Virus record (IMG/VR): IMGVR_UViG_3300005512_000002
Location: 1 to 64,000 of that record
DNA: 64,000 nt
Source of the DNA: a virus
Taxonomy: Duplodnaviria > Heunggongvirae > Uroviricota > Caudoviricetes
Reading direction: 5' to 3' (one strand)
Position numbers and translations under genes: made by a program. Numbering within the stretch: position 1 is the first letter of the stretch; every line of letters starts with the position of its first letter. Shown here in pieces: positions 1-64,000 of this stretch. The notes under the pieces are model-generated. The model saw nothing but the letters and a program-made list of their open reading frames with translations, did not search any database and had not been told where the DNA came from.

Positions 1-60
1 GTGCCCCCGCCCCCGGAACCCCCGGAACCCCCGGAACCCCCGGAATCCCCGGAAGCCCCG
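1..60 (+). repeat. Tandem CCCCGGAAC/CCCCGGAAG nonamer array (5 units) at window edge
   Basis: Direct reading: cccccggaacccccggaacccccggaacccccggaatccccggaagcccc; same motif family recurs >30x in window. Confidence 0.7.
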
Positions 61-204
61 GGGGTCGCCGCCGAGCGGTCACCATCAAGTAGCACCCAAC
101 CCAACACTAAGGTACCCACCTGGAACAACCGATCACACACCATGGCTATCACCCTCGCACCCCGCACGCAGAAAAACACCCCCGTGAGCCCCGTCAACCC
201 CAAC

Positions 205-260
205 CCGCGTCACGGCAGCACCGCAGGTGCGCCTGGCGGCGCGACCGCTAAGCAGCCGCC
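205..260 (+). repeat. Composite upstream repeat copy R1 (CGCGTCACGGCAGCACCGCAGGTGCG...GCGACCGCTAAGCAGCCG)
   Basis: Near-identical copies at 4866-4960, 5688-5752, 14766-14840 (+) and 16335-16425, 39669-39723, 43570-43657 (-); degenerate copy 38866-38930. Confidence 0.7.
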
Positions 261-328
261 CCAGCCGCCCGCACACGCCATCCACCTGCCGGCGTTCGCC
301 AAGGACGGCAGCCGGCTGGCCAAGGACA

Positions 329-1278
329 TGCTCCTGGCCCGCCTGGTGGTCCGCTGCCCGGACTTCGCCTGCAAGATCCAGGGCGGCACCGTCTCGGCCG
401 CCGGCCACGAGATCAAGGGCAAGCACAGCATCGGTCGCTACCGCTACGACGTGGGCGCCGAGATCTTCGCGGACCTGACCACCAACAAGACCAGGATCGA
501 CGCCGTGCTGCACCAGTTCTCGGTGGTGGACGCCGAGGACGGCTTCCGCATGGTGCCCATGGAGAAGCGCGAGGACCTCTTGAAGGCCCTGGAGCCGCTG
601 ATCCAGAAGCGCATGGGCTACGGCCAGTGGCTCGATGAGCACTGGTTCAGCACCATCGTCCCGGCCATCCAGGCCGAGCATCCCGACCACTTCGAGTACA
701 TCCTGCAGCGGGCGGTCACCCCGCCGTTCGAGCCCCGGCTGGAAGTCGTGCTCAGCATGCGGCCCCTGGGCGTGCTGGGGCCCAACGACTTCGACTGGGA
801 CAAGCTCACCCCCAAGGAACGCGAACGCTGCATCCAGCGGATGCGCCAGCAGGCCGACGACCTGGCCCGCGAGCGGGTGCAGAAGATCTTCGACGGGTTG
901 CTCAACCCGATCGCCGATCTGGCCGTCGAGATCAACGGCCAGAAGCCCAATCCCAAGTTCAACCCCGACCAGCCCGAGGGCCCCAAGAACCGCAAGTTCC
1001 TGCCCGGCATCGGCGATGATGGCAAGAAGGCCACCGTGCTCGATCGCATGTTCCGCGAACTCGACCGGCTCTTGAACTTCAAGAGCTTCCTGACCCCGGA
1101 ACTGGTCAACCAGGTCGAGCAGGCCCGCACCAACGTCTCCCAGGCCGGCGGCAGCCTCGATCGGGTCAAGGCCAGCGCCACGATCAAACAGGCGATTCTC
1201 GCCAGCTTCAACTCCGTGGCGGCCACCATGCGCCAGCAGTCCGAGGCCGCCCAGCAGCACGCGCGACCCGTCTCGTGA
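329..1278 (+). CDS. Hypothetical protein (start uncertain; ORF frame open from nt 1 through the repeat)
   Basis: Long ORF 1-1278, 316 aa from ATG 329; no recognisable motif; N-terminal extension would be translation of repeat DNA. Confidence 0.4.
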
Positions 1279-1322
1279 AACACGAGACGGGATGCGAAGG
1301 CGCAAGCGTACTACCATCACCC

Positions 1323-1907
1323 ATGGGCAACGCAGACCATCCGACCTCGCCGAAGAAAAACTTCCGGGGGAGTCTGGGGTTCGAGCGCACGGTCTCCACC
1401 GCCTTCGAGGACGTGCTCTACTGCAAGTTCATGCCCGGGTTCCTGCTGGCCGAGGATATCGAGCCCCTGACGCTGCACCTGGGCTATACCAACCCCATCC
1501 AGATGGCCAAGGACCACCTGGTGGCCTCGCCCGGCTCGACGGTCGTGAAAGACGGCGCCATCCACCGCCTGGGGACCCTGGTACCGGCCCGTGCTCCCAT
1601 CGGGAGCACGGGCCAGCTTGCGTTTGGCGAGTCTTCACAGGGCCCGTGCAAGTTCCTGGACCGCAACGACCGCTGTATCATCCACGCGCAGGCGCCCTGG
1701 GCCTGCGCTTTCTGCGACTCGATCATGTCCAAGGCCGAAGGCGATCGCCGAACCCTGGCGGCCAACATCGAGTTGTGGAAGTCCTGGCACGGCCGGGCAG
1801 ACGGCTACGCCGACCTGTGGCAGATCCTGTGGACCATGGGCCGGCGCGGGATCGCCCCGCGACTGTCCCGGGCCCGCATCCTCGCCGCCCTCAAGCAACG
1901 GGGATAA
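1323..1907 (+). CDS. Hypothetical Cys/His-containing protein (start uncertain)
   Basis: ORF 1275-1907; CIIHAQAPWACAFCDS cysteine cluster; contains CTTCCGGGGG motif near 5' end. Confidence 0.35.
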   Translation: MGNADHPTSPKKNFRGSLGFERTVSTAFEDVLYCKFMPGFLLAEDIEPLTLHLGYTNPIQMAKDHLVASPGSTVVKDGAIHRLGTLVPARAPIGSTGQLAFGESSQGPCKFLDRNDRCIIHAQAPWACAFCDSIMSKAEGDRRTLAANIELWKSWHGRADGYADLWQILWTMGRRGIAPRLSRARILAALKQRG

Positions 1908-2001
1908 GCCCTAAGAACCCAACACCAAAAAAGTTTCCCGCCAAACCGCAAGCGTGGAAGATGGTCGCTTGCGCCTGCACATCATCTTGGTGAGATATCC
2001 C

Positions 2002-3147
2002 ATGAGCATCAGCTTCACCACCACCACACCCAGTGTAACGACTGCACCGTCAGGTTCGCCCTCGTCGCCACCGCCCAGCCCTGCGGCGCCCGCCCCCGGC
2101 GGGCTCACCGAGCAGGAACTGGAACAGCGCCGCCGCTACATCGGGGCCAGCGAGGTTCCGGTGATCGTTTTGGGCGACAGCTATCCGTGGCGCCGCTACT
2201 TCAACCAGCTAAGCCTCTACCGCCAGAAGCTGGGCCTGGAAACGCCCCGGCCCCGCACCGCCGCCACCGACGCGGGCCTGTGGCTGGAAGACTCGCTGAT
2301 CCGCTTCGCCTACCACACCGTGGGCAAGGGCAATCGCAAGCACCGCCGGGTCACCCATCCCAACGGGGTCATGCAGGCCACCCTCGATGCTAAAGTTCCA
2401 GCACAACGTCGGGTCCTGGAACTGAAAAGTGTCGGCGAGACTTCGGTGCGTTGGCCCCGCGAACGCTGGGGGCATCCCGACCAAGTCGTCACCGGGCCCG
2501 ACCAGTGCAGCCCGTGTCTGGGCTTCGACCCGCATGGCGGCCCAGTGTTCGGCGAAGGCGTTGTTCCCATCGAGTATTACTGGCAGGTCATCGCCCAGGT
2601 GGCCTGTATCAACGCACGCGGAGCGGTGCTGGCCCAGCAGCACGGCAAGCCGTTTATCCCTTATCTGGGCGGCTACCTCGCCGCCCACCTGCCCGGCACC
2701 CATCAGCCCTACCGCCTCTACACCATCGACGCACTGCCCGAACACGTCAGCTTCGTCGAGAACACGGTCTGCGACTGGTACGAGCAGCACCTGGTCAACC
2801 AGGTCGCCCCGGACATGGTGATGACCGTCGGTTCGTTCCTGAACAGTGTGCTCGCCGACGACACCGCCGAGGTGCCCGACGACCTGTTCGAGGCCGTGCT
2901 GCCGCTGCGACAGCAGCGCTCCGAGCACGAACGGCGTTCCCGCCAGTTGGAAAAGCAGATCAAGGAGCACGAAGCCGCCATCTGGCAGGCCGCCGGCAAC
3001 GTCAAGCGGGTCACCTGCCCCGCCGGCCACGTGGCCGAACGGGTTGCCCGCCACCGCAAGGCCATGGCCGCCAGCACCTACCAGCAGACCGTCTACTACG
3101 CCCCGCCCCTCGGGGATCAGCCAGACACCGACGACACGCAGGAGTAA
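2002..3147 (+). CDS. YqaJ-like viral recombinase-associated exonuclease (lambda Exo-like PD-(D/E)XK)
   Basis: YIGASEVPVIVLGDSYPWRRYFNQLSLYRQKLG matches the YqaJ N-terminal motif; ELK acidic/Lys motif; GGTGAG RBS before ATG 2002. Confidence 0.7.
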   Translation: MSISFTTTTPSVTTAPSGSPSSPPPSPAAPAPGGLTEQELEQRRRYIGASEVPVIVLGDSYPWRRYFNQLSLYRQKLGLETPRPRTAATDAGLWLEDSLIRFAYHTVGKGNRKHRRVTHPNGVMQATLDAKVPAQRRVLELKSVGETSVRWPRERWGHPDQVVTGPDQCSPCLGFDPHGGPVFGEGVVPIEYYWQVIAQVACINARGAVLAQQHGKPFIPYLGGYLAAHLPGTHQPYRLYTIDALPEHVSFVENTVCDWYEQHLVNQVAPDMVMTVGSFLNSVLADDTAEVPDDLFEAVLPLRQQRSEHERRSRQLEKQIKEHEAAIWQAAGNVKRVTCPAGHVAERVARHRKAMAASTYQQTVYYAPPLGDQPDTDDTQE

Positions 3148-3150
3148 ACC

Positions 3151-4101
3151 ATGAGCACCCCCGGAAATCAGCCCATCCAGTTCAACCGACCGAATCGCAC
3201 GCACAACACCCAGCCCCGCAGCTTCACCCCGGAGCGACCCGCCACCTCGCCGCCCGCCGCCAAACCGCAAGCGACGCCGCAAGCCTCGCCGCAAGAGCAG
3301 GTGCACGAAGGAACCGGGCGCGGCCCGGCCAAGTGGAAGCAGCGCCCCAACGAAAGCTGCACGCCGAAAGAAATCCTGGAACTGCTGGCCAGGTACCAGG
3401 CCCGCATCCAGGAACTGATCCCGCCGCAGGTCACCCTCACCGCCGCGCGGCTCATTCGGCGGATCGAGGTCCAACTTCGCCGCAATCGGGAACTGGGCCT
3501 GTGCACTCCGTCCAGCGTGGTGACCACCGTCGGGGCCGCCGCCGCCATGGGCCTGGATATCTGCGACGGCCAGGTGTCCGTGCGCATCAACTGCGCCCGC
3601 CATGAAAGCGAGATCGTGTTTCGCTACGCCAGTCCGATCGTGGCGTATCCCGGCCTTCTCCTGATCGCGGCACGCAACGGCTTTGCCATCTCCGCCCAGG
3701 CCGTGCACGAGCACGACCAGTTCGAGTTCGGACACGAGGGCGATCAGTACCACGTGCACTGGCGGCGGGCCCTCGACCAGAAAGGCAAGCTGATCGGGGC
3801 CTTCGCCAAGTTCTCCGACAAGGCCTCCGGGCACATGGTGCACGTGGAGTTCATGGACGCCCAGCAGATCGACCAGGTCGCCGGCGATCCCAAGTACCGC
3901 AGTGCCACCTGGAGTGCCTGGCCGACCGAGCTATGGAGAAAGTCACCCATTCGCAGGGGTTTCAAGATGCTGCCGGCATTGTCCGACAGTCTCAAGGTGG
4001 CCATCCAGGTCACCCAGCAGGATGAGACCGGCGAACCGCTGGACGACCTGCTGGACCTGTACCCGGAAGCTCACCCGGAAGATGGCGACGACTTGACTTG
4101 A
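3151..4101 (+). CDS. recT: RecT-family single-strand annealing protein
   Basis: CTPSSVVTTVGAAAAMGLDI, YPGLLLIAARNGF, AVHEHDQFEF, WSAWPTELWRKSPIRRGFKMLP match RecT (PF03837) blocks; immediately follows the YqaJ exonuclease. Confidence 0.65.
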   Translation: MSTPGNQPIQFNRPNRTHNTQPRSFTPERPATSPPAAKPQATPQASPQEQVHEGTGRGPAKWKQRPNESCTPKEILELLARYQARIQELIPPQVTLTAARLIRRIEVQLRRNRELGLCTPSSVVTTVGAAAAMGLDICDGQVSVRINCARHESEIVFRYASPIVAYPGLLLIAARNGFAISAQAVHEHDQFEFGHEGDQYHVHWRRALDQKGKLIGAFAKFSDKASGHMVHVEFMDAQQIDQVAGDPKYRSATWSAWPTELWRKSPIRRGFKMLPALSDSLKVAIQVTQQDETGEPLDDLLDLYPEAHPEDGDDLT

Positions 4102-4210
4102 TCCTGGTGCTGGCGCAGGATATGGCCGGGGCCCGGAGTTCTTTGGGAAGGTGCCGCCGGCACTGGCTCCGGACCCGGCTCGTATCCACTTCGCCAAGGA
4201 GTCTGCTCCC

Positions 4211-5194
4211 ATGACAGCGGACACTGTCGTAAGCCCCGACATACGACCCGAGCAGGAAGCTCAAGACGACCAGGACATCCACGTCATCGCTGACAGCAAG
4301 TCCGGGCGCTTCTGGAGTGCCCAGCGACAACGCTTCGTGCGTCAGCACTTTTACGCCACCGAGTACCGGGACCCCAGGCAGGCAGCCGGCACCGCCAAGC
4401 GACTCGCACAACACTGGGGTCACAACAGCAAGGGATACACACCGGGAGCAACCAAGTCACCCGACCTGGTCGTGCTGCATCGCAGACAGATCCAGAACTT
4501 CCTCGATCGCCAGCAACGCACGGACAAAGTCACCATGCAGAGCACACCGCAGCCCGGGCACGCCGGCTCGCCGTTCACCGCCCAGCAACTACACGAGATG
4601 GGCTACGTGGTGATCGACATCGACGACGGCACCTGCTACGGCGGGGCCCAGAACCCGCACTTCTACGCCGACTGGCAGCGGGCCCACGAATACAACCGGC
4701 TGGGCAACGCCACCAACGTACTGAGCAAGATCAACGACCCGACCCGCTTCGCCGTGGTCCGCACCGGCCACGCCCAACGCATCCGCCAGGCCCTGCTCGG
4801 GGCCAACGGCCGACGACCACAGATCCAGGTGCTCGACCCCGACCGCGTGCACATCCACACCCCACCCCCGCCCCCGGAAGCCCCGGAAACTCCCCGCGTA
4901 ACGGCAGCACCGCCAGATGCGCCTGCCGGCGCGACCACCAAGCCGCCCCCGGAAGCCCCACAAGCACGCCCGGACACCGCCAGGGCCCTGGAGAAACTCG
5001 CCGAAGCGGTCAACCAGTACGCCACCGCCCACCAGCAACTGGCCCAGGCCCGGGAACAACTCCAGCAATACGCCGAGTCCCTGCGGCACAACCTGCACAA
5101 ACTCGAAGACGAGACCCTGGCACTGGGCCTGCAAGTCGAAGAAGCCGACACAGCCCTGAAACAAAGCCTGATCAAGGTCCCGGACAAACCATGA
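4211..5194 (+). CDS. Hypothetical protein with repeat-derived Pro/Ala linker and C-terminal coiled coil
   Basis: AAGGAG RBS 9 nt before ATG 4211; repeat copy R2 read through in-frame (PPPPEAPETPRVTAAPPDAPAGATTKPPPEAP); C-terminal heptad-rich segment. Confidence 0.5.
   Translation: MTADTVVSPDIRPEQEAQDDQDIHVIADSKSGRFWSAQRQRFVRQHFYATEYRDPRQAAGTAKRLAQHWGHNSKGYTPGATKSPDLVVLHRRQIQNFLDRQQRTDKVTMQSTPQPGHAGSPFTAQQLHEMGYVVIDIDDGTCYGGAQNPHFYADWQRAHEYNRLGNATNVLSKINDPTRFAVVRTGHAQRIRQALLGANGRRPQIQVLDPDRVHIHTPPPPPEAPETPRVTAAPPDAPAGATTKPPPEAPQARPDTARALEKLAEAVNQYATAHQQLAQAREQLQQYAESLRHNLHKLEDETLALGLQVEEADTALKQSLIKVPDKP
4866..4960 (+). repeat. Composite repeat copy R2 embedded in-frame in a CDS
   Basis: cccgcccccggaagccccggaaactccccgcgtaacggcagcaccgccagatgcgcctgccggcgcgaccaccaagccgcccccggaagcccc. 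Confidence 0.65.
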
Positions 5195-5688
5195 GCCACG
5201 TCACCCGCATCAAGATGAAGATCAAGAGCCTCGACGCCCTCAAGGCCGCCGTCGCCCGCTTCGAGAACCTGGAATGGCGCGAGGGTAAGAAGACCCACAA
5301 CTGGTGGGGCAGATTTCAAGGCGACTACAACGACGGAACCATCCGTCCCGACCAGATGGGCAAGTGCGACCACGCCATCGCCCTGACGGGATCACCCTGG
5401 CTGGACCACGCCGACCGCAGCCAGCCCTACGAGGTCGGTGTCTGCGCCGAGCCCGACGGCACCTGGCGGCTGCAACTGGACTTCTACAGCGGCGGCCGGG
5501 GCCTGTGCTCCGTGGTGGGCGAGAAGTGCCAGAAGCTCAAGCACGCCTACGCCCTGGAGTATGCCAAGGAGAAGCTCAGCACGCAGATCGGGGCCGGCTG
5601 GCGGGTCACCGAGGTCCCCCAGGAAGACGGCAGTGTCAACCTGGAGGTCAGCGAGTCGGCCGGCAGTATCGCCGCCGGCTGGAGATAG
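5191..5688 (+). CDS. DUF1257 family protein (Ycf35-like)
   Basis: N-terminus MSHVTRIKMKIKSLDALKAAVARF matches the DUF1257 signature MSHF..IKTKIKD...L..AL; ATGA overlap with upstream gene. Confidence 0.6.
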   Translation: MSHVTRIKMKIKSLDALKAAVARFENLEWREGKKTHNWWGRFQGDYNDGTIRPDQMGKCDHAIALTGSPWLDHADRSQPYEVGVCAEPDGTWRLQLDFYSGGRGLCSVVGEKCQKLKHAYALEYAKEKLSTQIGAGWRVTEVPQEDGSVNLEVSESAGSIAAGWR

Positions 5689-5752
5689 CCCCGGCGTTGC
5701 CGCGTCACGGCAGCACCGACAGGTGCGACTGCCGATGCGACCGCTAAGCCAA
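5688..5752 (+). repeat. Composite repeat copy R3 immediately upstream of the DUF2997 gene
   Basis: ccgcgtcacggcagcaccgacaggtgcgactgccgatgcgaccgctaagcc followed by AAGGAG RBS and ATG 5766. Confidence 0.65.
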
Positions 5753-5765
5753 GGAGCAACCACAG

Positions 5766-5963
5766 ATGCGTAAAATCATCGTTCACGTCCCGGCCGACCC
5801 GGAAGAAGACACCGTCACCGTCACCACCGAGGGCTTCGACGGCCCGGCGTGCCTGGAGGCCACCGCCGAACTGGAACGGGCCCTGGGCGACACTGTCGCC
5901 GAGGAACGCACCCCCGAGTTCTACGAACGCCAGGACGACATCCGTCTGGCACAGGAAAGATAG
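5766..5963 (+). CDS. DUF2997 family small protein
   Basis: MRKIIVHVPADPEEDTVTVTTEGFDGPACLEATAELERALG...TPEFY matches the DUF2997 pattern (kveG..G..C.e....le..lG....e.TpEYY); partner of DUF1257. Confidence 0.6.
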   Translation: MRKIIVHVPADPEEDTVTVTTEGFDGPACLEATAELERALGDTVAEERTPEFYERQDDIRLAQER

Positions 5964-6024
5964 CCGCCAAACCGCAAGCGACACCCACAATCCACGCTTG
6001 CGCCTCCACATTCGGGAATCTCCC

Positions 6025-6297
6025 ATGATCGCACGTACCACCCTCAAGATCCATCCCGACGGCCAGATCGAGTTTATTCACGACGATGAGCTTGTCGAGA
6101 TGTTCCAGGACGCCATCGCCGACCAGCACACCACCCGTGCTTCCCACGTCGAGCCCAGCCAGACCAGCCCCGGCACCTGGGACGCGGACTTGTCGCCGGT
6201 GGGTGGTCCGCTGCTGTGCGGATTTGCCAAGCGGCAAGCCGCCCTCCAGGCGGAAGTCGCCTGGCTCAACGCCCATTACCTGCACATATCATCGTAA
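6025..6297 (+). CDS. Hypothetical protein
   Basis: ORF 5998-6297, ATG at 6025; preceded by GCCAAACCGCAAGCG 15-mer and CGCAAGCG/GCTTGCG hairpin. Confidence 0.35.
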   Translation: MIARTTLKIHPDGQIEFIHDDELVEMFQDAIADQHTTRASHVEPSQTSPGTWDADLSPVGGPLLCGFAKRQAALQAEVAWLNAHYLHISS

Positions 6298-6334
6298 CCG
6301 ACATCGCATCCAGCACCCTTCACAAGGAGACCCC

Positions 6335-6835
6335 ATGCCACGACCCAAGAACCTGATCCCCAAGATGCGTACCGCCCAGGACCTGGTCAAGTTCCTCCAG
6401 GACCTCAAGCACCGCCGCGAACAGGCCCTCCAGCAGGTCCACGAGATCGACCAGGTCTTCGCCAGCTTGCAGACGCTGGACCTGACGGACCACCAGCACC
6501 AGACCAGAACCAACGCCAAGCCGCAAGCGAGAACCCGCACCACCCGGGGGGATAAGGCCAAAGCCTACCGCGTGAAGAAAAAACGGGCGTTCAGCAAGGC
6601 CCAGGCCCGCAACACCCCCGGAAGCAACCGCACCACCGGCCGTGAGTTTGTGCTCACGTTCCTCAAGCGTTCGGGCCCGGCCAACACCAAGGCCATCACC
6701 GGTGCCTGGCGCAAGGCCCGCCGGTCCGCCCGGCCCGACCAGGCCATCAAGACCCTGGTGGACAGCGGCCTGGTCGCCAAGAAGAACGACCCCGAGACCA
6801 AGGGTTCGCTGTACACCCTGGCGGAAAAGAAATAA
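6335..6835 (+). CDS. Hypothetical basic protein, possible DNA-binding
   Basis: AAGGAG RBS 5 nt before ATG 6335; Lys/Arg-rich middle; contains GCCAAGCCGCAAGCG 15-mer variant. Confidence 0.45.
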   Translation: MPRPKNLIPKMRTAQDLVKFLQDLKHRREQALQQVHEIDQVFASLQTLDLTDHQHQTRTNAKPQARTRTTRGDKAKAYRVKKKRAFSKAQARNTPGSNRTTGREFVLTFLKRSGPANTKAITGAWRKARRSARPDQAIKTLVDSGLVAKKNDPETKGSLYTLAEKK

Positions 6836-6837
6836 CC

Positions 6838-7332
6838 ATGCAGCTACCCGAAGCATACATCTCCCCGCATCCGCAGGTGGACCGCCTGCTGCTCGATGTC
6901 AGCGACCACTTCACCACCGAGGGTCTGCTGCCCGGCCAGATGCTCTGCTTCTGGTGCGCCCGGCTGGACGATGGCAGCCTGGAAGTCCAGACCCGCAGCT
7001 ACGTGCTGCAAGATCAGGACGACAAGGGCAAGTCCGCCGACGCCATCCGGGAACTGGCTGCCAGGATCGAGCCGTTCGCCCTGGTGACCATGTCCGACGC
7101 GACACTCACCCTCGTCAGGCCCGACGGCACGCACGAGCAGACCGACGCGGTGATCTTCACCATCCAGGACTACCACCAGAACAAACCCCGCACCCAGCAG
7201 ATGATCGTGCCCTACCGCCAGGAGGTTCAGGACTCCAAGCTGACCCGGACCCTGGGCCAGCCGACGGTCGGACTGACCGGCGCGGGCATAGCGAGCCGCT
7301 GGCAGGACCTGCTGCCGCCCAAAGATAAGTGA
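6838..7332 (+). CDS. Hypothetical protein
   Basis: 164-aa ORF tightly packed after upstream stop. Confidence 0.45.
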   Translation: MQLPEAYISPHPQVDRLLLDVSDHFTTEGLLPGQMLCFWCARLDDGSLEVQTRSYVLQDQDDKGKSADAIRELAARIEPFALVTMSDATLTLVRPDGTHEQTDAVIFTIQDYHQNKPRTQQMIVPYRQEVQDSKLTRTLGQPTVGLTGAGIASRWQDLLPPKDK

Positions 7333-7955
7333 ACCCGCAGACCGCCCGGGTGCCGGGCCACTACGCGGCGGGGTGGAACTCCGCCGGCCCGGCCCCGGGC
7401 TTTTCACCCACCATCATGACCCGCAAAAAAGACACCTACCGCAAGCAGAAACCCATTGCCATGAGCCAGTGGGGCAAGGACCACTGGTCCACCCTGGCCT
7501 ACATCGAGTGCCGCTGCGTCGATCACGGCGGCGTGCCCGACCGCCGGCACATGAGGGCCAACCCCGAACTGCACCCGCAGTTCGCCCACATTGCCTGGGA
7601 AGACGACATCCCCACCCGGCGCAAGGGCGGCAAGCTCAAGCACAACCACGACGACTGGAGTTGCGTGGATGACATGGTCGCCGAGGGCCTGGTCCGCTGG
7701 TTGGGCACGGGCATGAACCCCGTGTTCAAGCTGACCGAGCGCGGCCTGGCCGTGTGCACCGCCATCCGCAAGCACAAGGCGTCCGGGGGTAACTTCGCCG
7801 GCTTCATCCCGCCCCCGGAAGACACCCTGCCGCCCCGGCCCGAGCCCCAGGATCAGGACGAGATCGACCTGCGCGAAGCCCTGCACCTGACCGCCGACGG
7901 CCATCCGGTGCACGGCTACGCAGGTCCCGCCGCACCACTGGGGCCCACGCCATGA
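7329..7955 (+). CDS. Hypothetical protein (GTG start overlapping the upstream stop; alternative ATG at 7416)
   Basis: ORF 7329-7955; Cys/His-containing (IECRCVDHGG). Confidence 0.4.
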   Translation: MNPQTARVPGHYAAGWNSAGPAPGFSPTIMTRKKDTYRKQKPIAMSQWGKDHWSTLAYIECRCVDHGGVPDRRHMRANPELHPQFAHIAWEDDIPTRRKGGKLKHNHDDWSCVDDMVAEGLVRWLGTGMNPVFKLTERGLAVCTAIRKHKASGGNFAGFIPPPEDTLPPRPEPQDQDEIDLREALHLTADGHPVHGYAGPAAPLGPTP

Positions 7956-8200
7956 AAATCTATAAGGTCAGCGTCCACGATCCCGACGAAGGAGCCTGTC
8001 TAAGCTGGCACGCCAGTCTGGCAGAGGCCAACAAGGCTCGCCGCAAGGCCAAGCACACCATCTACATGGCCACCCAAATCTGCAAGGACGCCCGGAGGGA
8101 CGCCGGTGAACCGTCCCACATCACCACCATGCAGATCCCCATGACCAAGCAGGGCCTGCTCGATTGGCTCAACAGCCACTTCACCCACGACAACGGTTAG
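7952..8200 (+). CDS. Hypothetical small protein
   Basis: ATGA overlap with the upstream gene; 82 aa. Confidence 0.4.
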   Translation: MKIYKVSVHDPDEGACLSWHASLAEANKARRKAKHTIYMATQICKDARRDAGEPSHITTMQIPMTKQGLLDWLNSHFTHDNG

Positions 8201-8202
8201 CC

Positions 8203-9723
8203 ATGAGCAAGACATCATCCTCCACCTGGTTCGAGGTAGACAAGGACGGCCTGGCCCGGCTGCTGGCCCGGCAAGGCAAGAGCTTCGTGGTCTTCGAGCT
8301 ACTGCAAAACGCCTGGGACGAGGACGGCGTGACCGAGGTCCGCGTCGAACTGACTCCCGTGGCGGGCCAGCCCCTGTGTCAACTCACGGTCACCGACTCG
8401 GCGCCCGAAGGCTGGAAACGACTCTCGGACGCCTGGACCCTGTTCGCCGACTCGACCAAGAAAGACAACCCCTTGAAACGCGGCCGGTTCGACATCGGCG
8501 AGAAGTTAGTATTGGCCATCTGCCGCGACGCCCGGATCGAGACCACCACCGGCACGGTCATCTTCAACGCCGACGGCACCCGCCAGCGCAGCAGTTGCAA
8601 GACCCAACGCGGCTCGTCCTTCACCGCCTACGTGAAAATGACCCGGGCCGAGTACGACACCGTCTGTCAGGACGTACAACGGCTCATCCCGCCCGAGGGC
8701 ATCAAGACCATCTTCAACCGCCAGGTGCTCCAGCGGCCCCACATGCCGACCCGGTTCGCGTGCACCCTGCCCACCGAGACCAGCGATGGCGACGGCAACC
8801 TCATCGAGACCAGCCGCAAGACCACCGTTGAGGTCTACATGCCCCGGGCGGGCGAACAGGCCTGGATCTACGAGATGGGCATCCCGGTGGTCACCTGGGA
8901 TGCACCTGGCAACTGTCACGCCAATGTCCTGCAGCGGGTGCCCTTGAACTGGAACCGCAACAACGTCACGCCCGGCTACCTCAAAGCCCTGCAGGTCGCG
9001 GTGCTCAACCACGTCTTCGAGCATCTGGATGCCGAGCAGGCGGCCAGCACGCCGGTGCGGGAAGCCTGCGGCGACCCCCGGGTTGATCCCCAGGCCATCC
9101 AGAAGGTGCTGGACCTGCGCTTCGGCAGCAAGCGGGCCAGCTACGACCCCAACGATCCGGAATCCGCCGGCAAGTTCCAGCACGCCGGTGGCCGGGTGAT
9201 CCACGGCGGCGATCTGTCCAGTGCCGAATGGCAGCAGGTCAAAGAGCACGGCCTGGTCAAGCCCGCTTCCCACTACACGCCCAGCCCCGACGCCTACAGT
9301 GCCGGGGGCCGGCCCGAGAAGGTCATCGCCGAGAAAGACTGGACGCCGGGCATGAAGAAGCTGTGCCTGTTCGCCTACGACCTGGCCCGCCAGATCCTGG
9401 GGCACTCCATCAGTGTGCGGGTAGCCAGCGAGCCCACCATCTGGTGGCGAGCCAACTACGGCCAGCGGCAACTGACCCTGAACCTGGGCAAGCTGGGGCA
9501 CCGGTTCTTCAACGACTTCCCCGACAACCTGGAAGACGCGCTCGATCTGCTGATCCACGAGTTCGGCCACGATTTCGAGGGTGGCGACGACCACCTGTCC
9601 GACCAGTACCATCGGGCCCTGACCCGCCTGGGTGCCCGAGGGGTCCTGCTGGCCCTCGACAACCCCCGCTTCTTCAAGCAGTTGAAAGTAAAAGCCGAGC
9701 CGGCCGCCCGGCCGACGGTATAA
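8203..9723 (+). CDS. GHKL-type (Bergerat fold) ATPase-like N-terminal domain protein with C-terminal HExxH motif
   Basis: FELLQNAWDEDG (N-box E..NA.D), LTVTDSAPEG, RGRFDIGEKL Gly motifs; C-terminal LLIHEFGHDFEGGDDH zincin-like HExxH. Confidence 0.5.
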   Translation: MSKTSSSTWFEVDKDGLARLLARQGKSFVVFELLQNAWDEDGVTEVRVELTPVAGQPLCQLTVTDSAPEGWKRLSDAWTLFADSTKKDNPLKRGRFDIGEKLVLAICRDARIETTTGTVIFNADGTRQRSSCKTQRGSSFTAYVKMTRAEYDTVCQDVQRLIPPEGIKTIFNRQVLQRPHMPTRFACTLPTETSDGDGNLIETSRKTTVEVYMPRAGEQAWIYEMGIPVVTWDAPGNCHANVLQRVPLNWNRNNVTPGYLKALQVAVLNHVFEHLDAEQAASTPVREACGDPRVDPQAIQKVLDLRFGSKRASYDPNDPESAGKFQHAGGRVIHGGDLSSAEWQQVKEHGLVKPASHYTPSPDAYSAGGRPEKVIAEKDWTPGMKKLCLFAYDLARQILGHSISVRVASEPTIWWRANYGQRQLTLNLGKLGHRFFNDFPDNLEDALDLLIHEFGHDFEGGDDHLSDQYHRALTRLGARGVLLALDNPRFFKQLKVKAEPAARPTV

Positions 9724-9734
9724 TTGACACGACC

Positions 9735-10109
9735 ATGAGCAACCAGATTCTCACCATCGCACCGTACCGCCAGCACGGCACCTGGGTCTTCGACGACGAC
9801 GCGGCGGACCTGCACCAGGAACCGTTCGTCGCCGGCGCCCCCGAGATGATCGACGTGCTGGTGGCCGACATCCCCCAGGCCGCCGCCGGCTTCCGCCTGT
9901 TGTTCTCGCCCGAGCCGTTCCCGGGCCACCAGCAGGTGCTGATCCACGACGGCGAAGAAGACGGGGGCAACTGGTACCGCACCCAACAGCCCGCCATGCG
10001 CGGCTGGCTGTGCCCGGCCCTGTTCAAGTATTTCCGCATGGCCCCGCAGCGCATCTACGTGAAAGCCGAGGCCCTCGCCCAGCACCAGGGGAACAACCGC
10101 CATGAGTGA
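9735..10109 (+). CDS. Hypothetical protein
   Basis: ORF in frame of 9228-10109 with ATG at 9735 just after the upstream stop. Confidence 0.4.
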   Translation: MSNQILTIAPYRQHGTWVFDDDAADLHQEPFVAGAPEMIDVLVADIPQAAAGFRLLFSPEPFPGHQQVLIHDGEEDGGNWYRTQQPAMRGWLCPALFKYFRMAPQRIYVKAEALAQHQGNNRHE

Positions 10110-10488
10110 AACCACCCTGCATCCCGTACTCTGCCAGCAGCTTGAAGAAACCGACCCGGGCCACGACCTGGGCTACCGTTACCAGGTCGTCCAGCCCGAC
10201 GGCGACTGCCACCGCTTCCGCACCCGCGAGCAGCTTGAGCAGTTCGTCGGTCGCCACGGCCTGCGGGCGGTCACCGAAAGCGAATGGTTTGACATCACCC
10301 ACGCCGGATCGCCGAGCCCCAAGTCGAAACTCCACGGCTTGTCCGGCCACGTCACGCACGACGAAATGGCCTACAACCCCGACGATCCGGACAACCAGCC
10401 GTTCGACCCCCGGAACCCCAACGGCCCGCCGGACGACACGGACCAAGACCCGGGGGAGCTTCCGGAGGCCGGGGCGGACCCTACCTGA
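10102..10488 (+). CDS. Hypothetical acidic protein
   Basis: ATGA-type overlap with the upstream gene; Asp/Pro-rich C-terminus. Confidence 0.4.
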   Translation: MSETTLHPVLCQQLEETDPGHDLGYRYQVVQPDGDCHRFRTREQLEQFVGRHGLRAVTESEWFDITHAGSPSPKSKLHGLSGHVTHDEMAYNPDDPDNQPFDPRNPNGPPDDTDQDPGELPEAGADPT

Positions 10489-10707
10489 CTGGCTTGCGGG
10501 GGCCGGGGCGGGGCCGGGGGCGGCCAAGCCCAGGCAAGCCACGTGACCCCGGCTTCTTCGCCGGCTGGCGGATGGGCCGCCGGGAGCGGTTCCGGGGTTC
10601 GACCCTGCCCTATCTGCCCGCCCACCACTGGTGGGACTGGCTCACCCCCTGGCTGGGCCTGTTCGTGTTCTACCTGCTGTTCATCCGGGGCTGCTCGGGC
10701 TGAACCC

Positions 10708-10736
10708 TTGCAACCAGAACCGGTGCGCGGTATGAT
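10708..10736 (+). promoter_or_regulatory. Sigma70-like promoter TTGCAA-N17-TATGAT
   Basis: TTGCAA 10708-10713, 17-nt spacer, TATGAT 10731-10736, in the intergenic gap upstream of the HNH-containing unit. Confidence 0.4.
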
Positions 10737-10786
10737 ACCCCGAGAAGTTATCTACTGGGCAGTTGTGTATTTGCCTTCATGCGGAT

Positions 10787-11077
10787 GTGGAGAGAGAAAC
10801 CCTGGCGATCACCTGGTCCAAGCGGTTCCCCGAGCCGGCCACGCTCGACGAGGCCGAGACCCGCCTGCGGGCCCTGCGGCGGGAGGTCGAGCGCATCGGC
10901 ATCCAGACGCTCACAAGCCGCCCGGGACGCGGCAGGATGGCGTACAAGGCGTGGGACTGGCGGGGGCGGGCCACCAGGGCCCTGGGCATCAAGCGGGCTC
11001 AGGCGGCCTGCCTGGCCGCCTGGATGCAAAGCCAGGCCCGTCCGACTCAAGTCGCACCTTCCGAGGGCCGACCATAG
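10787..11077 (+). CDS. Hypothetical protein (start very uncertain; track uses TTG at 10763)
   Basis: Open frame 10763-11077 downstream of promoter; no motif. Confidence 0.2.
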   Translation: MERETLAITWSKRFPEPATLDEAETRLRALRREVERIGIQTLTSRPGRGRMAYKAWDWRGRATRALGIKRAQAACLAAWMQSQARPTQVAPSEGRP

Positions 11078-11081
11078 GTCT

Positions 11082-11342: not shown

Positions 11343-11355
11343 AGGAGAATGAGCC

Positions 11356-13089: not shown

Positions 13090-13094
13090 GCCCT

Positions 13095-50716: not shown

Positions 50717-50718
50717 CC

Positions 50719-50760
50719 CCCCGGAAGTTAGCCCACGGAAGTTGGCCCACGGAAGTTCCC
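50719..50760 (+). repeat. Three 14-bp tandem copies of (C)CACGGAAGTT directly upstream of the RNR start codon
   Basis: ccccggaagttagc ccacggaagttggc ccacggaagttccc ggagtgaccc ATG. Confidence 0.6.
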
Positions 50761-54467: not shown

Positions 54468-54553
54468 ACATCACCATTTACCACGCCTTGCCCCGGGGAC
54501 AACTTCCGGGGGCGAGGGCTAACTTCCGGGGGTCCCTGGGAGGGGAAAGAAAC

Positions 54554-59919: not shown

Positions 59920-60191
59920 GCGAACCCGAACACCTGTTCCCGTGCCAGGTCGCCCACGAGCATGAGATCGAGGTGACCGTCAATCTCGACCTGCTCCGGC
60001 AGCGACGCTACGCCGCCGTGCGTATGGCCTTCCGCCTGCTGTGCCGCAAGATGCGCGACACCATGCAGGAGCACCCCAAGAAACTCATCGTGCCCCACCG
60101 CGTGGGCCACCAGTTCACCGATCAGCACCTGCGCCTGTACGCCAAGCTGCACACCCTGACCCCCCTTGTCCCGGAGGAGACCGAACCGTGA
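59916..60191 (+). CDS. Hypothetical small protein
   Basis: ATGA overlap. Confidence 0.4.
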   Translation: MSEPEHLFPCQVAHEHEIEVTVNLDLLRQRRYAAVRMAFRLLCRKMRDTMQEHPKKLIVPHRVGHQFTDQHLRLYAKLHTLTPLVPEETEP

Positions 60192-60598
60192 TCGACGAGC
60201 AACTCAGAGTCTACCTGGCCGCCAGCTACGTGCGGCGGGCCGAGGCCCGCAAGATCAAGGAGCAACTGGAGCGGATGGCCGAGGTCCGGATCGTCAGCGA
60301 CTGGATGGTCCGCGATCCCGAACCGTCCGACCAGTGCGCGCCCAAGGACTACCAGCAACTGCACGATCAGGCCCAGGTCCTGGTGGTCCTGACCGGCGAC
60401 ACGCTCTCCAAGGGTGGCCGGCACACGGAACTGGGTATCGCCCTGGCCGAAGGCAAGCCCGTCTTGCTGCTGGGCCCGCGCGAGCGGAATGTCTTTCACC
60501 ACCTGGCCCAGGTTACCCAGTGCGACACGGTCGAGGACGTGGCCAGCAAGCTGATCATGATGGCCAACGACTGCCCGCAGGTGGTGGTCGCCTCCTAA
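60188..60598 (+). CDS. Nucleoside 2-deoxyribosyltransferase-like (NDT/SLOG-fold) protein
   Basis: GTGA overlap start; LRVYLAASYV...QVLVVLTGDTLSKGGRHTELGIALAEGKPVLLLG matches the NDT pattern (iYlAGpf...aD.vval.....DsGTafElGyA.A.gKPvi). Confidence 0.45.
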   Translation: MIDEQLRVYLAASYVRRAEARKIKEQLERMAEVRIVSDWMVRDPEPSDQCAPKDYQQLHDQAQVLVVLTGDTLSKGGRHTELGIALAEGKPVLLLGPRERNVFHHLAQVTQCDTVEDVASKLIMMANDCPQVVVAS

Positions 60599-61460: not shown

Positions 61461-61478
61461 GCGAAGTACCCAGCTTGC

Positions 61479-62207
61479 CTAGCTTGTCAATTGCTCGATA
61501 AAAGAGCGACGGTCGATCGACCGGTTGTAGCTCTTGGCACAGGCTGCCAGGCCGGCCACCAGCGCCGCTGCCACGCTCGTGCCCCTGAAGGGCCGCTGAC
61601 GGGCGTCGGCCCAGTCGGGCGACGTTCCGACCGGGGCCGTCAGATCCACGCCCTGCGGGCTGTCAGGGCCGCCTACGGCCACCACGCCGGGATGCGAGTG
61701 GGGCCACTGCCACAGCGGACTGTGGGCGGCCACCACGATGACCCCGCGCCGATCCAGGTCCGCCAGCCGATCGTCGAACAGGCGGCTGTGCTCGGTGAAG
61801 GCCAGGGCCATCAGGACCACGTCGGCCCCGATCTGCACCGCCCAATCGAGCGGTCGGCACAGGTTCTGCCAGGCCATGCGGGTGCCGGGGACCTCGGTGA
61901 TCACCTTGGCCACGTACAACGTGCAGGCTGGAGCGATCCCCAGCCGGACGGGGTCCTGGGACGCCACGATCTGACAGACCCGGCTGCCATGGGCATCACC
62001 GCCGCCCCCGGAAGCTCCGCAACTTCCAGGGCTGCTTGCAGGGGAGCTTTCGGGGTGGTTTCCGGAGGTCGGGGTCTCGGATAGAAAGCTGCGCACCTCC
62101 TCGGGGTAGACGAACGGCGTGCGGGCGTCCAGTCCCGAGTCCATGACCAGCACCCGGGCCCCTTGACCCAGGGTGTCCAACCACGCTTTGGGTGCTTGCG
62201 ATCTCAA
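61479..62207 (-). CDS. Subtilisin-like serine protease (peptidase S8), compact (start uncertain; track start is TTG)
   Basis: VLVMDSGLD (Asp), HGSRVCQIVAS (His), GTSVAAALVAG (Ser) catalytic triad blocks in S8 order. Confidence 0.6.
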   Translation of the reverse strand: MRSQAPKAWLDTLGQGARVLVMDSGLDARTPFVYPEEVRSFLSETPTSGNHPESSPASSPGSCGASGGGGDAHGSRVCQIVASQDPVRLGIAPACTLYVAKVITEVPGTRMAWQNLCRPLDWAVQIGADVVLMALAFTEHSRLFDDRLADLDRRGVIVVAAHSPLWQWPHSHPGVVAVGGPDSPQGVDLTAPVGTSPDWADARQRPFRGTSVAAALVAGLAACAKSYNRSIDRRSFIEQLTS

Positions 62208-62253
62208 ATCTCAAATCTCAGATATCACATCCGGCGGCTTCAGCCGCCGCCGG
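62198..62253 (-). terminator. Putative terminator for the 62240-63505 gene: GC hairpin spanning the stop codon plus the conserved 26-mer in reverse orientation
   Basis: On minus strand: ccggcggcggc-tgaa-gccgccgg then ATCTGAGATTTGAGATTTGAGATCGC, identical to 54151-54176. Confidence 0.5.
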
Positions 62254-63505
62254 GGGCCTGGTCCGATCCGGCAAAAGGCGCCGCCGGCAGGTACTGCGTG
62301 CCGTGGACCCAGACCGTCTCGGTGCCGCCCAGCTTGTGCTGGAGGGTCACCTGGCACTTGGCCTGCACGATGCCCCCCAGGCACTGCTGCACCCAGCGGC
62401 CGTCCGCACCCCCGGAAGCCTCGCCGTAGGGGTTGTGCCAGGTGATAAGCTCGCCGGACAATTCCGGGGGCAGCTTGGCCGGCGAATCGTAGTAATACGG
62501 GTGGTCCGGCGGGCTGGCCGGGTCGTCGTAGTTCACGGTGCGATACCGGGACTTGTGGTCGTCGGTCACCAGGCTGTTGTGGTAGATCCCGATCGGGTCC
62601 ACGGTGCTCGTGCCCCGGGCACAGAACGGCGAGAGGTAGGTGCCGGTTTGCACGTCGGTGAACGGCAGGCTCACCGTCACGGAAAAGCCGTCCCCCTGGC
62701 CGGGGTCGGCGCCAGGCAGGCGGGCCCAGTCAAGCTGGGTGACCGCCTGGTACTCGATCAGCGGCCAGATGTACAGGTTGTCCGAGAACGGCGGCGCGGC
62801 CGCCGGTTCCGGGGGCAGGTCCAGGTCCCCGCCCGCGTAGAGCATCGTCCCATGCTGCAGGTCATACTTCCTCGGGTCGTAGCTGTTCGGGTCGTAAGCC
62901 GGGTTGGTGCCCGCGCAGGGGCCGCCAAACAGGGCGTCGGCCCGGTCCTTGAGCCAGTGGGTCCGGTGCCGTTCCGTGTCGCTTATCACCTGGCTTTGCG
63001 TCGGGTCCAGGTAGTAGTCGATGGGCAGCGTCCGGGCGTTCTCCAGAAACGCCGGGGTGTGGTCGCGCCCTTCGCGGTACGGCCCGGCCACCATGCCGCT
63101 TTGCGAGCAGTCGTAGCGCAGCCCGCGCTGGGCCGCCGTCTCGGCGCTGGCCACCTTCAGGTCCCAGGGCTGCACGTACACCCGCCGCCACAGTTCCTGG
63201 ACGTGGAAATACCACTTGGGCGTGCCCACCAGGGTGTACTGGTGCTGCTGGTTGCCGTCCCGGGATCTCGGGCCCCACAGGTCGGTGAGCGTGAAGGTGT
63301 AGTCCTGGCTGCCGGAGAACGCATCCTGGCGGTCGGGGTCCGCCCAGTCGAAGCCCATCAGGAACAGGTGGCAGTGCCCGAAGTGGTCGTACTCGACCCG
63401 GGTGTTGGGCCCCGTGGGATGGGTGTACTCGTAATAGTATCGCCACTGGTCGTGCCAGACCCAGAACAGCGGGTAGAACTGGATGCCTTCGGCCTCGATC
63501 GCCAT
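62240..63505 (-). CDS. Hypothetical Trp/Tyr-rich protein
   Basis: 421-aa ORF; weak His-containing motifs (FWVWHDQWRYYYEY; HFGHCH) insufficient for assignment. Confidence 0.4.
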   Translation of the reverse strand: MAIEAEGIQFYPLFWVWHDQWRYYYEYTHPTGPNTRVEYDHFGHCHLFLMGFDWADPDRQDAFSGSQDYTFTLTDLWGPRSRDGNQQHQYTLVGTPKWYFHVQELWRRVYVQPWDLKVASAETAAQRGLRYDCSQSGMVAGPYREGRDHTPAFLENARTLPIDYYLDPTQSQVISDTERHRTHWLKDRADALFGGPCAGTNPAYDPNSYDPRKYDLQHGTMLYAGGDLDLPPEPAAAPPFSDNLYIWPLIEYQAVTQLDWARLPGADPGQGDGFSVTVSLPFTDVQTGTYLSPFCARGTSTVDPIGIYHNSLVTDDHKSRYRTVNYDDPASPPDHPYYYDSPAKLPPELSGELITWHNPYGEASGGADGRWVQQCLGGIVQAKCQVTLQHKLGGTETVWVHGTQYLPAAPFAGSDQAPGGG

Positions 63506-63532
63506 GCCGCCACCTCGCGCCGGACCCCGGGG

Positions 63533-64000
63533 TTACCCTTCCGCGATCGTCGCCTCCAGGCGCACCATCAGCAGGGCCTCGATCCGCTGGACGAACTGGC
63601 CGACCAGGACATCGGTCCCTTCGCAGATGCGGTCCAGGTCCATCCAGTGGAACTCGACGAAGCCCACCGTCTTGTACTCGCCCTGCCGCAGGGGCACGTG
63701 GGCCACGGCCATGACGTTCAGGTTCATCAGCACACTCTTGATGTGGCTGTCGGCCAGGTCGTCGATCTGCCGCACCTCGATCGGCTCGCCGGACTTGTGC
63801 GCCAGCATCGGCTCGATGATCGGGGCCAGCATGCTGGCCGGCACGTTACTCTGCAGGTGCTGGCTCAAGCCCACGCCGCCGATGACCGACTCGTGGGTGC
63901 AACTGACCCGCTGGATGCTGGAGCCCGAGTAGAAGTGCTCGCCGTTGTGGAACTGGAACACGGCGGCCCGGGCGGCCCCGGAGATCACCCGCAACTCGGT
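63533..64000 (-). CDS. Hypothetical protein, N-terminally truncated by window end
   Basis: Frame open to nt 64000 on the minus strand; C-terminal 153 aa visible. Confidence 0.35.
   Translation of the reverse strand, partial: TELRVISGAARAAVFQFHNGEHFYSGSSIQRVSCTHESVIGGVGLSQHLQSNVPASMLAPIIEPMLAHKSGEPIEVRQIDDLADSHIKSVLMNLNVMAVAHVPLRQGEYKTVGFVEFHWMDLDRICEGTDVLVGQFVQRIEALLMVRLEATIAEG

Follow-up and report, generated by a model that had tools for sequence, protein, structure and literature searches.

A short asymmetric DNA word in a phage-like replicon as a probable signature of its Phycisphaerae host lineage

Words that are hyper-abundant throughout the DNA of a lineage are known in very few cases, namely the DNA uptake sequence (DUS) of the Neisseriaceae, the uptake signal sequence (USS) of the Pasteurellaceae and the highly iterated palindrome HIP1 (GCGATCGC) of cyanobacteria, and each of these opened research into gene flow. 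Here, we analyse a further word, the 10-mer CTTCCGGGGG/CCCCCGGAAG, in 64,000 nucleotides of viral DNA (positions 1 to 64,000 of IMG/VR record IMGVR_UViG_3300005512_000002; hereafter the window), which is treated as part of a large phage-like replicon. We are confident that CTTCCGGGGG is the core of an asymmetric word of about 11–12 bp that is hyper-abundant in the chromosomes of one sub-clade of Phycisphaerae and in Phycisphaerae-associated mobile DNA; its presence in the window is thus a signature of the host lineage and not a signal of the phage's own. The features of the word match neither DUS/USS nor HIP1 cleanly, and it is a new instance of the clade-specific hyper-abundant oligonucleotides. 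No paper was found that reports the word in a relevant context, or an iterated motif in Phycisphaerae.

The word shares with DUS and USS a length of 9–12 bp without palindromic symmetry, a density of tenths to about one per kb, indifference to orientation, a place in coding and non-coding DNA and in tolerant protein segments, and the character of a clade-specific ‘dialect’. The published observed/expected ratios of DUS/USS are 183–392 for the perfect word and 2–4.8 for one-mismatch forms (PMC1939737); this profile, of roughly 100-fold over-representation of the perfect form and just a few-fold over-representation of its variants, is seen here too, with one-mismatch forms near background. New DUS in Neisseria have been described as ‘matching a series of gaps’ in orthologues (PMC2397512), and new sites of the present word likewise often stand opposite gaps or unrelated sequence. 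In both cases, moreover, a phage carries the word near host density, as the temperate Haemophilus phage HP1 does. The systems differ in that here arrays are frequent, inverted terminator pairs are almost absent, mobile elements are word-rich and sites are not positionally conserved; furthermore, the carrier is a large replicon with its own replisome. HIP1 is similarly a short word restricted to a phylum or clade, 15–300-fold over-represented in all frames and between genes. What it does is debated, and recent work connects it with transformation and horizontal transfer (PMC5861425, PMC4390886, bioRxiv 10.1101/2024.09.10.611283). However, orphan methyltransferases methylate HIP1, a palindrome that is conserved above background from genome to genome and reportedly arises by substitution, whereas the word described here is asymmetric, turns over quickly and is associated with insertions and deletions (indels).

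Other systems resemble the word in single respects. Small dispersed or insertional repeats, including the in-frame palindromic elements of Rickettsia and the cyanobacterial small dispersed repeats reportedly treated by Elhai in 2008, are 21–150 nt long and have internal structure. They too are short units inserted relative to orthologues, in frame within genes and in spacers, but the unit here is about 9–12 nt long, has no recognizable ends or target duplication and forms arrays of variable period. The stoperators and start-associated sequences of mycobacteriophages are 13–17-bp words present in tens of copies per phage genome, some just upstream of genes; they are specific to a phage cluster, follow the direction of transcription, lie mostly between genes and bind a phage repressor, whereas the present word is shared with host chromosomes and unrelated elements and is mostly genic. 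Finally, Chi, KOPS (FtsK-orienting polar sequences) and AIMS (architecture-imparting sequences) are G-rich asymmetric words that act through density, and phages can mimic the Chi of their host (PMC3784561). Chi and KOPS are strand-polar and about 2–3-fold over-represented, whereas ours is non-polar and 30–100-fold over-represented.

Abundance in the window, in host chromosomes and in mobile DNA

The exact 10-mer occurs 27 times in the window, compared with a mean of 0.38 and a maximum of 3 in dinucleotide shuffles (n = 100) and with expectations of 0.28 and 2.03 under third-order and fifth-order Markov models, respectively. Its 9-mer core, TTCCGGGGG, has 39 copies (0.61 per kb) where 0.75 (third-order) and 3.97 (fifth-order) are expected, the fifth-order expectations being inflated by the very copies that are counted. 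TTCCGGGGG and its sub-words lead the ranking of over-represented words for each k from 8 through 12. The strong over-representation of the decamer put forward in an initial annotation of the window is confirmed by these counts and persists under both Markov models; its figure of more than 30 occurrences holds for the 9-mer and not for the exact 10-mer. Sites are found on both strands, in all six reading frames, inside and between genes and often in direct arrays, which bears out the suggestion that the pattern is one of DNA and not of protein. A repeated peptide as the cause is ruled out by the use of all six frames, and a composition artefact by the third- and fifth-order models together with a relative of equal GC that lacks the word (see below). 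Among 17 canonical G-quadruplex motifs in the window, only 3 overlap clusters of the word (28–59, 4865–4895 and 18403–18433), and G-quadruplex formation therefore cannot account for the single sites.

The word extends well beyond the window. A scan of GTDB for the direct-pair pattern, with one genome per species, matched at least 120 loci; among the loci listed, at least 80 belong to Phycisphaeraceae, Phycisphaerae or other Planctomycetota, with GC from 49% to 74%. The position weight matrix is identical in the window, in 80 Planctomycetota loci and in 19 viral loci. It gives the asymmetric consensus R-CTTCCGGGGG-Y (R-C-T-T-C-C-G-G-G-G-G-Y), with about 11–12 informative positions and unconstrained flanks. 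Outside the ascertained pairs, the Planctomycetota loci (contigs >50 kb) hold 61 copies of the 9-mer in 184 kb versus 3.3 expected, and control loci of other phyla hold 6 versus 3.0 expected.

Loci ascertained by pairs overstated how general the enrichment is, and 22-kb neighbourhoods of glmS, picked by protein alone with the GlmS of a bacterial locus (L192) as reference, were used as an unbiased test. Three genomes with GlmS 83–90% identical to the reference carry 10, 3 and 10 copies of the 9-mer per 22 kb (0.2–0.4 expected), some of them within housekeeping genes; pooled, this amounts to 23 copies in 66 kb versus about 0.8 expected, or 0.35 per kb. Eight more distant Phycisphaerae, with GlmS 70–80% identical to the reference, among them Mucisphaera calidilacus and assemblies that had yielded motif-rich loci, together have 2 copies in 167 kb (1.3 expected). 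Backbone enrichment is therefore limited to a sub-clade, and a property common to all Phycisphaerae genomes is ruled out. For this one sub-clade, the density in the host comes within about two-fold of that in the window (0.35 versus 0.61 per kb), which is essentially the equal abundance in the host that had been named beforehand as speaking against a phage-specific signal. On the word alone, the replicon would be assigned to a Phycisphaerae host.

Next to glmS, the motif-rich genomes encode prepilin-type (N_methyl) proteins (L206, 11999–12829; L207, 7993–8847; L208, 7215–8081). The receptor of Neisseria DUS is a minor pilin, and these proteins are only a lead to a reader of the word.

Relatedness between phages does not track the word. 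The polymerase relative L001 (22 kb, 45% identity, GC 65%) has no copy of it and no comparably over-represented k-mer. By contrast, a search for two copies lying no more than 30 bp apart found 74 contigs in IMG/VR. Many of them are strongly enriched, at GC values between 54% and 71%; examples are contigs of 6.8, 11.8 and 8.9 kb with 17, 18 and 9 copies, respectively. About ten of these form a second phage family, recognized by terminase, portal and a protease–capsid fusion, with 93 10-mers in 113 kb (loci ascertained by pairs). A conjugative element at positions 1–8000 of locus L092 (contig CAWCXG010000001.1, 2.96 Mb), likewise ascertained by its pairs, carries 17 9-mers in 8 kb beside genes for a TraG/VirD4-type coupling protein of a type IV secretion system (T4SS) and a DUF3363 protein, and the 22-kb glmS region of the same genome (L201) carries none. 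More generally, the rich loci of motif-poor genomes resemble mobile elements (T4SS coupling protein with DUF3363; HerA-like ATPase). Another motif-rich locus lies in a Planctomycetota assembly of 50% GC (L091, 1621–5079), where an open reading frame (ORF) of 1152 residues resembling a DNA methyltransferase (DPPY motif) contains four GC-rich in-frame arrays, on both strands, translated as GTSGGTSGG and as PGSAPAPGSAPAPG linkers, with PGSAPAPG also among the inserts. The window shares a single protein, ribonucleotide reductase (RNR), with 58 motif-rich loci, and that protein matches a locus of a bacterial genome; a common binding protein encoded by the mobile elements was sought in this comparison and none was found.

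Three properties describe the behaviour of the word. First, it lacks polarity: adjacent clusters have the same or the opposite orientation in 97 and 90 cases in host loci, 75 and 67 in viral loci and 14 and 21 in the window. Second, it is specific, with the perfect word at 27–130 times expectation and one-mismatch variants of the core near background. Third, it turns over with short indels. This was assessed in orthologous host regions, because the homologues of the phage polymerase are at most 50% identical; the comparisons draw on just four genomes, and the pairs are not independent of one another. An orthologue without the word has mismatches at 3 or more of 8 positions, or gaps, in 72% of cases (control 23%). 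In 42 comparisons, the local stretch of the motif-bearing genome was longer 27 times, of equal length 12 times and shorter 3 times; the corresponding control shares are 5.1%, 90.7% and 4.2%. Inserts are 1 to 17 nt long, and array periods across loci are 9, 12, 15 and 18 bp in genes and 14 and 20 bp between genes. A defined element was not recognized in these comparisons: conserved ends, internal structure and target-site duplication were not seen, and the informative positions number only about 11–12.

Placement of the sites in the window

The sites were set against 77 genes that we called with a codon-usage model (92% coding). Direct arrays were confirmed with Tandem Repeats Finder (TRF) at 10–61 (9 bp × 5.8), 14766–14785, 14903–14933 (15 bp), 18404–18433 (9 bp × 3.3), 33588–33623 (15 bp) and 50718–50757 (14 bp × 2.9). 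The sites are as follows.

10–61, minus strand: tandem array of 5.8 × 9 bp (minus-strand unit TTCCGGGGG); the first gene (142–1278) starts 81 nt beyond it
1361–1370, plus strand: single site within a coding sequence (CDS), encoding FRG
3158–3166, minus strand: single 9-mer site at the start of the RecT-like gene
4871–4955, minus strand: three copies (4871, 4881 and 4946) in a Pro-rich segment of CDS 4211–5194, encoding PPE/APE
6615–6624, minus strand: single site within a CDS
7812–7821, minus strand: single site within a CDS, encoding PPE
10407–10416, minus strand: single site within a CDS, GTTCCGGGGG form
13438–13462, plus strand: direct pair at 15-bp spacing within a CDS, encoding ASGGKTSGG
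14766–14785, minus strand: intergenic direct pair at 9-bp spacing (TRF)
14903–14933, minus strand: direct pair at 15-bp spacing at the start of gene 14898–15539, encoding PRKKTPRKK (TRF)
16115–16131, plus strand: 17-mer GGGCTAACTTCCGGGGG, intergenic, in a convergent gap 14 nt past the stop codon at 16101
16341–16350, plus strand: intergenic site, GTTCCGGGGG form
18403–18433, minus strand: tandem array of 3.3 × 9 bp within a CDS, encoding LPGLPGLPG (TRF)
18980–18989, minus strand: single site within a CDS, encoding FRG
19162–19171, plus strand: single site within a CDS
23000–23009, minus strand: single site in the DnaE-like polymerase gene, VFRG at residues 22–25
26397–26406, plus strand: single site within a CDS, encoding PPE
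30159–30168, plus strand: single site, GTTCCGGGGG form, in a methyltransferase-domain gene
30296–30305, minus strand: single site in the same methyltransferase-domain gene, opposite orientation
33600–33624, plus strand: direct pair at 15-bp spacing in the N-terminal extension of the PHP-domain gene, ahead of the PHP domain
35058–35067, minus strand: single site at a gene boundary
41759–41768, minus strand: single site in the C-terminal tail of the DnaB-like helicase (ASGGGGSP, then stop)
44878–44887, plus strand: single site within a CDS, encoding PPE
48916–48925, minus strand: intergenic site, 1 nt past the stop codon at 48915
50718–50759, minus strand: intergenic array of 2.9 × 14 bp (GGGCYAACTTCCGK) between gene 49763–50716 and the RNR gene; the first unit alone is a perfect site and carries the 17-mer GGGCTAACTTCCGGGGG (TRF)
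54503–54532, plus strand: intergenic direct pair at 20-bp spacing; its second member is the 17-mer, which ends 22 nt ahead of the start of the SbcD-like exonuclease gene (54554)
62005–62014, minus strand: site between called genes
62409–62418, minus strand: single site in CDS 62240–63505
62461–62470, plus strand: site, ATTCCGGGGG form, in CDS 62240–63505, opposite orientation to the site at 62409
62806–62815, plus strand: site, GTTCCGGGGG form, in CDS 62240–63505

Most coordinates in the initial annotation agree with this catalogue to within a few bases, except that the entry at 39690 is merely the degenerate form TTTCCGGGGC; the exact sites at 6615, 7812, 19162, 23000, 26397, 30296, 35058 and 44878 had been overlooked. 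Its recurrent 17-mer GGGCTAACTTCCGGGGG was rightly placed at 16115, the second copy lies at 54516(+) and not at 54513, and there is a third at 50718(−); all three copies are intergenic. A description of AACTTCCGGGGG repeats as lying upstream of genes is true of a minority only, since 25 of the 39 9-mer sites (64%) fall within CDSs, in both orientations relative to transcription. The other 14 fall in the non-coding 7.6% of the window; counted by cluster, about 9 of 31 are non-coding, an intergenic excess of about 3.6-fold. Within genes, six-frame use yields PPE, FRG, (A/T)SGG, LPG, PRK/PRN and xPGS, with a sense:antisense ratio of 13:19. Direct tandem arrays make up 8 of 36 clusters in the window, with periods of 9 or 15 bp within genes, both multiples of three, and of 9, 14 and 20 bp between genes. 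The polymerase site, VFRG, occupies gap-free columns of the alignment opposite VMKG or VLEG in homologues; as these columns are gap-free and alignable, this site arose by substitution.

Promoter-like and terminator-like matches in the window occur at the level of shuffled sequence and do not coincide with the sites, and a promoter or terminator role for the word is therefore not supported. The three intergenic 17-mer copies could have been locally co-opted. The divergent 585-bp region at 47794–48378, which separates leftward replication genes from rightward nucleotide-metabolism genes, lacks the word altogether. Within it lie two copies of a 10-bp direct repeat (GGGTCTGCAG, 48005–48025) and the sole sigma-70-like match in that area; the region is a candidate control or origin region.

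Two further repeats in the window are distinct from the word. One, at 40460–40569, consists of in-frame tandem repeats with 21-bp and 45-bp units in the C-terminal part of the SSB-like gene. The other, at 44443–44484, comprises 4.7 in-frame copies of the 9-mer CCGGGGTGG in CDS 43658–44941; it has CCGGGG in common with the word but is not a copy of it. Neither tRNA genes nor Rfam matches were found in the window.

Candidate mechanisms

Whatever its mechanism, the word acts, if at all, by density rather than by position. It has neither strand polarity nor a constant relation to genes, and orthologous regions do not keep its positions. The perfect form is strongly preferred over one-mismatch forms, and turnover proceeds mainly through short insertions, replacements and deletions and through slippage into direct arrays; within genes, only in-frame versions persist, in tolerant loops (PPE, FRG, (A/T)SGG, LPG, PRK and xPGS). 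Among the mechanisms considered, the likeliest, which we advance tentatively and by analogy, is one resembling the DUS and USS. A host-encoded DNA-handling machine would read the double-stranded word in either orientation, most plausibly when DNA is taken up, or recognized as ‘self’, during natural transformation. Molecular drive (recombination after biased uptake), selection to resemble self, or both, would then keep the density high across a shared gene pool. Phages belonging to that gene pool would gain host-like densities, as may be seen in HP1 (L210), which carries 17 copies of the USS core AAGTGCGGT in 32 kb where 0.6 would be expected (plus strand, 11; minus strand, 6), near the host density.

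Several points weigh against this uptake-like mechanism. Uptake-driven drive should not reach a strictly virulent phage, and the virulent T7-like Pasteurella phage PHB02 (L211) has no USS, which would count against the analogy if our replicon is strictly virulent; no integrase was seen in the 64 kb, and the replicon has its own replisome. A literature search found no relevant paper on competence in Planctomycetes or Phycisphaerae, or on a receptor for the word. Neisseria DUS are depleted in recently acquired DNA (PMC2397512), whereas the word is not depleted in the second phage family or the conjugative element; the window phage, the conjugative element and the second phages are at least as word-rich as the backbone, although the loci of the conjugative element and of the second phages were ascertained by pairs. 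The host densities themselves come from few regions of 8–22 kb, the backbone value from three of 22 kb. Direct tandem arrays are atypical of DUS and USS, and inverted pairs of the terminator type are rare here. Finally, Neisseria DUS are stringently conserved and orthologous sites of the word are not: in backbone regions of about 80% nucleotide identity, 10 of 55 aligned sites are conserved, compared with 25.6% of control 8-mers.

We hold in even balance the broader proposition that a clade of Phycisphaerae and its virome and mobilome share an undescribed word of about 11 bp that is either an uptake or ‘self-recognition’ sequence or the trace of an insertional process writing a unit of 9–12 nt. 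In the former case, if true, the system would have no precedent outside Proteobacteria except HIP1 in cyanobacteria, and both natural transformation in planctomycetes and phage mimicry of a host word would be implied; a case in Planctomycetota would make competence and self-recognition in this phylum directly testable. The indel-linked origin, the in-frame protein arrays, the fast turnover and the sharing with phages bear on whether such words are selected or driven. In addition, the word assigns an uncultured phage-like replicon of roughly the 180-kb class and a second phage family to a Phycisphaerae host from sequence alone, and it provides a simple k-mer marker with which hosts can be predicted in metagenomes from hypersaline sites, soda lakes and mats.

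The insertional process of that proposition, taken as a neutral micro-repeat, is in our view unlikely but deserves to be weighed. A lineage-specific mutational process would write the word and a few flanking bases into any DNA replicating in these cells; candidates are copying from other copies, by template switching or through microhomology, slippage on the G5 run, and some unknown activity of end joining or of a polymerase. Selection would only filter the places where the word is tolerated, and no protein would read it. Gains and losses that are mostly short indels (27 longer versus 3 shorter; controls 5% versus 4%), sites that face gaps in orthologues and positional turnover at or above the neutral rate all fit such a process. 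So do the near absence of one-mismatch ‘decay’ forms, as young copied units would show, the direct arrays of variable period, the in-frame arrays inserted into host genes (GTSGGTSGG and PGSAPAPG in the methyltransferase-like ORF) and the presence of the word in all the unrelated elements of the same hosts. However, some sites, such as the polymerase VFRG, were made by substitution in gap-free conserved columns, and a mutational process with a sequence specificity of 9–11 bp is without known precedent. The same indel-linked pattern is also reported for the functional DUS of Neisseria (PMC2397512), and the process leaves unexplained why backbone enrichment stops at the sub-clade boundary and why mobile elements in motif-poor genomes are rich.

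A HIP1-like mode of maintenance has a rather small probability. Here an orphan DNA methyltransferase, a very-short-patch-like repair activity, or both, would act on the word, with its internal CCGG modified, and the word would promote recombination or horizontal transfer. CCGG is a common cytosine-methylation site, the word is clade-restricted and lies in coding and non-coding DNA in all frames, and a drive of the repair type would reach phage DNA in the cell whatever the lifestyle of the phage. Its enrichment (27–130 times) and density (0.35–0.6 per kb) also match HIP1, at 15–300 times (PMC5861425). HIP1 sites, however, are conserved above background (PMC5861425), and those of the word are not. 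Moreover, the word is not palindromic, its specificity (about 11 bp, asymmetric) exceeds that of known methyltransferase or Vsr-type enzymes, and its transition-type one-mismatch variants are not depleted.

We consider it improbable that the word is a Chi-like signal, which would attenuate a host end-processing nuclease of the AddAB/RecBCD type and which phages and plasmids would gather to shield their linear ends. Phycisphaerae do encode an AddA-like helicase-nuclease (L114, a locus of a Phycisphaera genome assembly; UvrD and PD-(D/E)XK domains), phages without RecBCD inhibitors over-represent Chi (PMC3784561), and tandem arrays in one orientation would be expected to make recognition more probable. 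Of the 11 clusters in the first 15 kb, 9 lie on the minus strand, with the 3′ end of the G-rich strand towards the window start, but this bias coincides with a strong compositional skew there, and the window start is probably not a genome end (see below). In host and viral loci the predicted polarity fails: 172 of 329 adjacent pairs (52%) agree in orientation, where a 75% skew predicts 62.5%. The enrichment, at 30–100 times, is far from the approximately 2.3–2.5 times of Chi (PMC3784561), the word is longer than any known Chi (5–8 nt), and the replicon encodes its own RecT/YqaJ, RecA and RecD2.

Least probable by far is the proposal of the initial annotation that a phage-encoded transcription factor, nucleoid protein, packaging factor or modification enzyme reads the word as the phage's own signal: three intergenic 17-mers, direct repeats near the starts of the RNR and SbcD-like genes, and a D12-class adenine methyltransferase with two methyltransferase-domain proteins encoded by the replicon would suit it, but the reading is largely refuted by the abundance of the word in host chromosomes and is further opposed by its abundance in elements sharing no proteins with the replicon, its absence from L001 and from the main divergent control region, its 64% of genic sites in both orientations, its want of association with promoter-like or terminator-like sites and its lack of an adenine in a context typical of D12-class enzymes.

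The replicon carrying the word

The window (GC 65%) encodes a split DnaE-type polymerase, with the core gene at 20519–23074 and a PHP-domain gene at 32339–33817. Between the two lie about 9 kb of sugar-nucleotide and glycan genes with a GC of 62%: GDP-mannose 4,6-dehydratase, epimerases/reductases, an RmlC-like protein, two sulfotransferase-like proteins, glycosyltransferases and S-adenosylmethionine-dependent methyltransferases. Two glycosyltransferases of family GT4, of the ‘conflict systems’ type, follow at 33892–36581, and the sugar-nucleotide/glycosyltransferase/sulfotransferase island spans about 13 kb. Other replication genes encode DnaB, DnaG and SSB; recombination is represented by RecA, RecT with a YqaJ-like exonuclease, RecD2 and the SbcD-like nuclease; and nucleotide metabolism by a class II RNR, dCMP deaminase and a MazZ-like dNTP diphosphohydrolase. 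The methyltransferases are the D12 adenine enzyme and the two methyltransferase-domain proteins noted above. Structural genes were not found in the 64-kb window.

The MazZ-like dATP/dGTP diphosphohydrolase (PF18909; 38149–38850), the dCMP deaminase (49201–49782) and a nucleoside 2-deoxyribosyltransferase-like protein (60188–60598) form a set that adjoins the class II RNR and the GT4 transferases; no PurZ-like gene was recognized in the window. This set is suggestive of nucleotide-pool manipulation or DNA hypermodification.

GenBank contains no near-identical phage, and a search of IMG/VR with the 17-mer and a unique 38-mer gave no match. The closest polymerases, at most 50% identical, lie on contigs of 130–190 kb, some of them IMG/VR viral contigs. 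Among metagenome contigs, short pieces of the same replicon alone gave matches; its source is JGI metagenome 3300001419. The leftward gene block at 1–16000 has a skew unlike the rest of the window (GC skew −0.10 to −0.14, AT skew +0.13 to +0.33), the asymmetry being on its coding strand; its genes are mostly without a Pfam or PHROG match, except for those encoding the YqaJ-like exonuclease, RecT and the D12 methyltransferase.

The array at 10–61 sits at the left edge of the window, towards which its G-rich strand points with its 3′ end. Two short-read contigs from this replicon (JGI metagenome 3300001419) also begin exactly within arrays, one corresponding to window positions 16–2331 (L209) and the other to 18403–23642 (L003). 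Because these contigs break at arrays as well, a break of the assembly at a repeat is the probable reason why the window starts here. A physical genome end, whether telomere-like or Chi-protected, is unsupported, since independent contigs break at internal arrays too. In practical terms, arrays of the word fragment short-read assemblies of such genomes.

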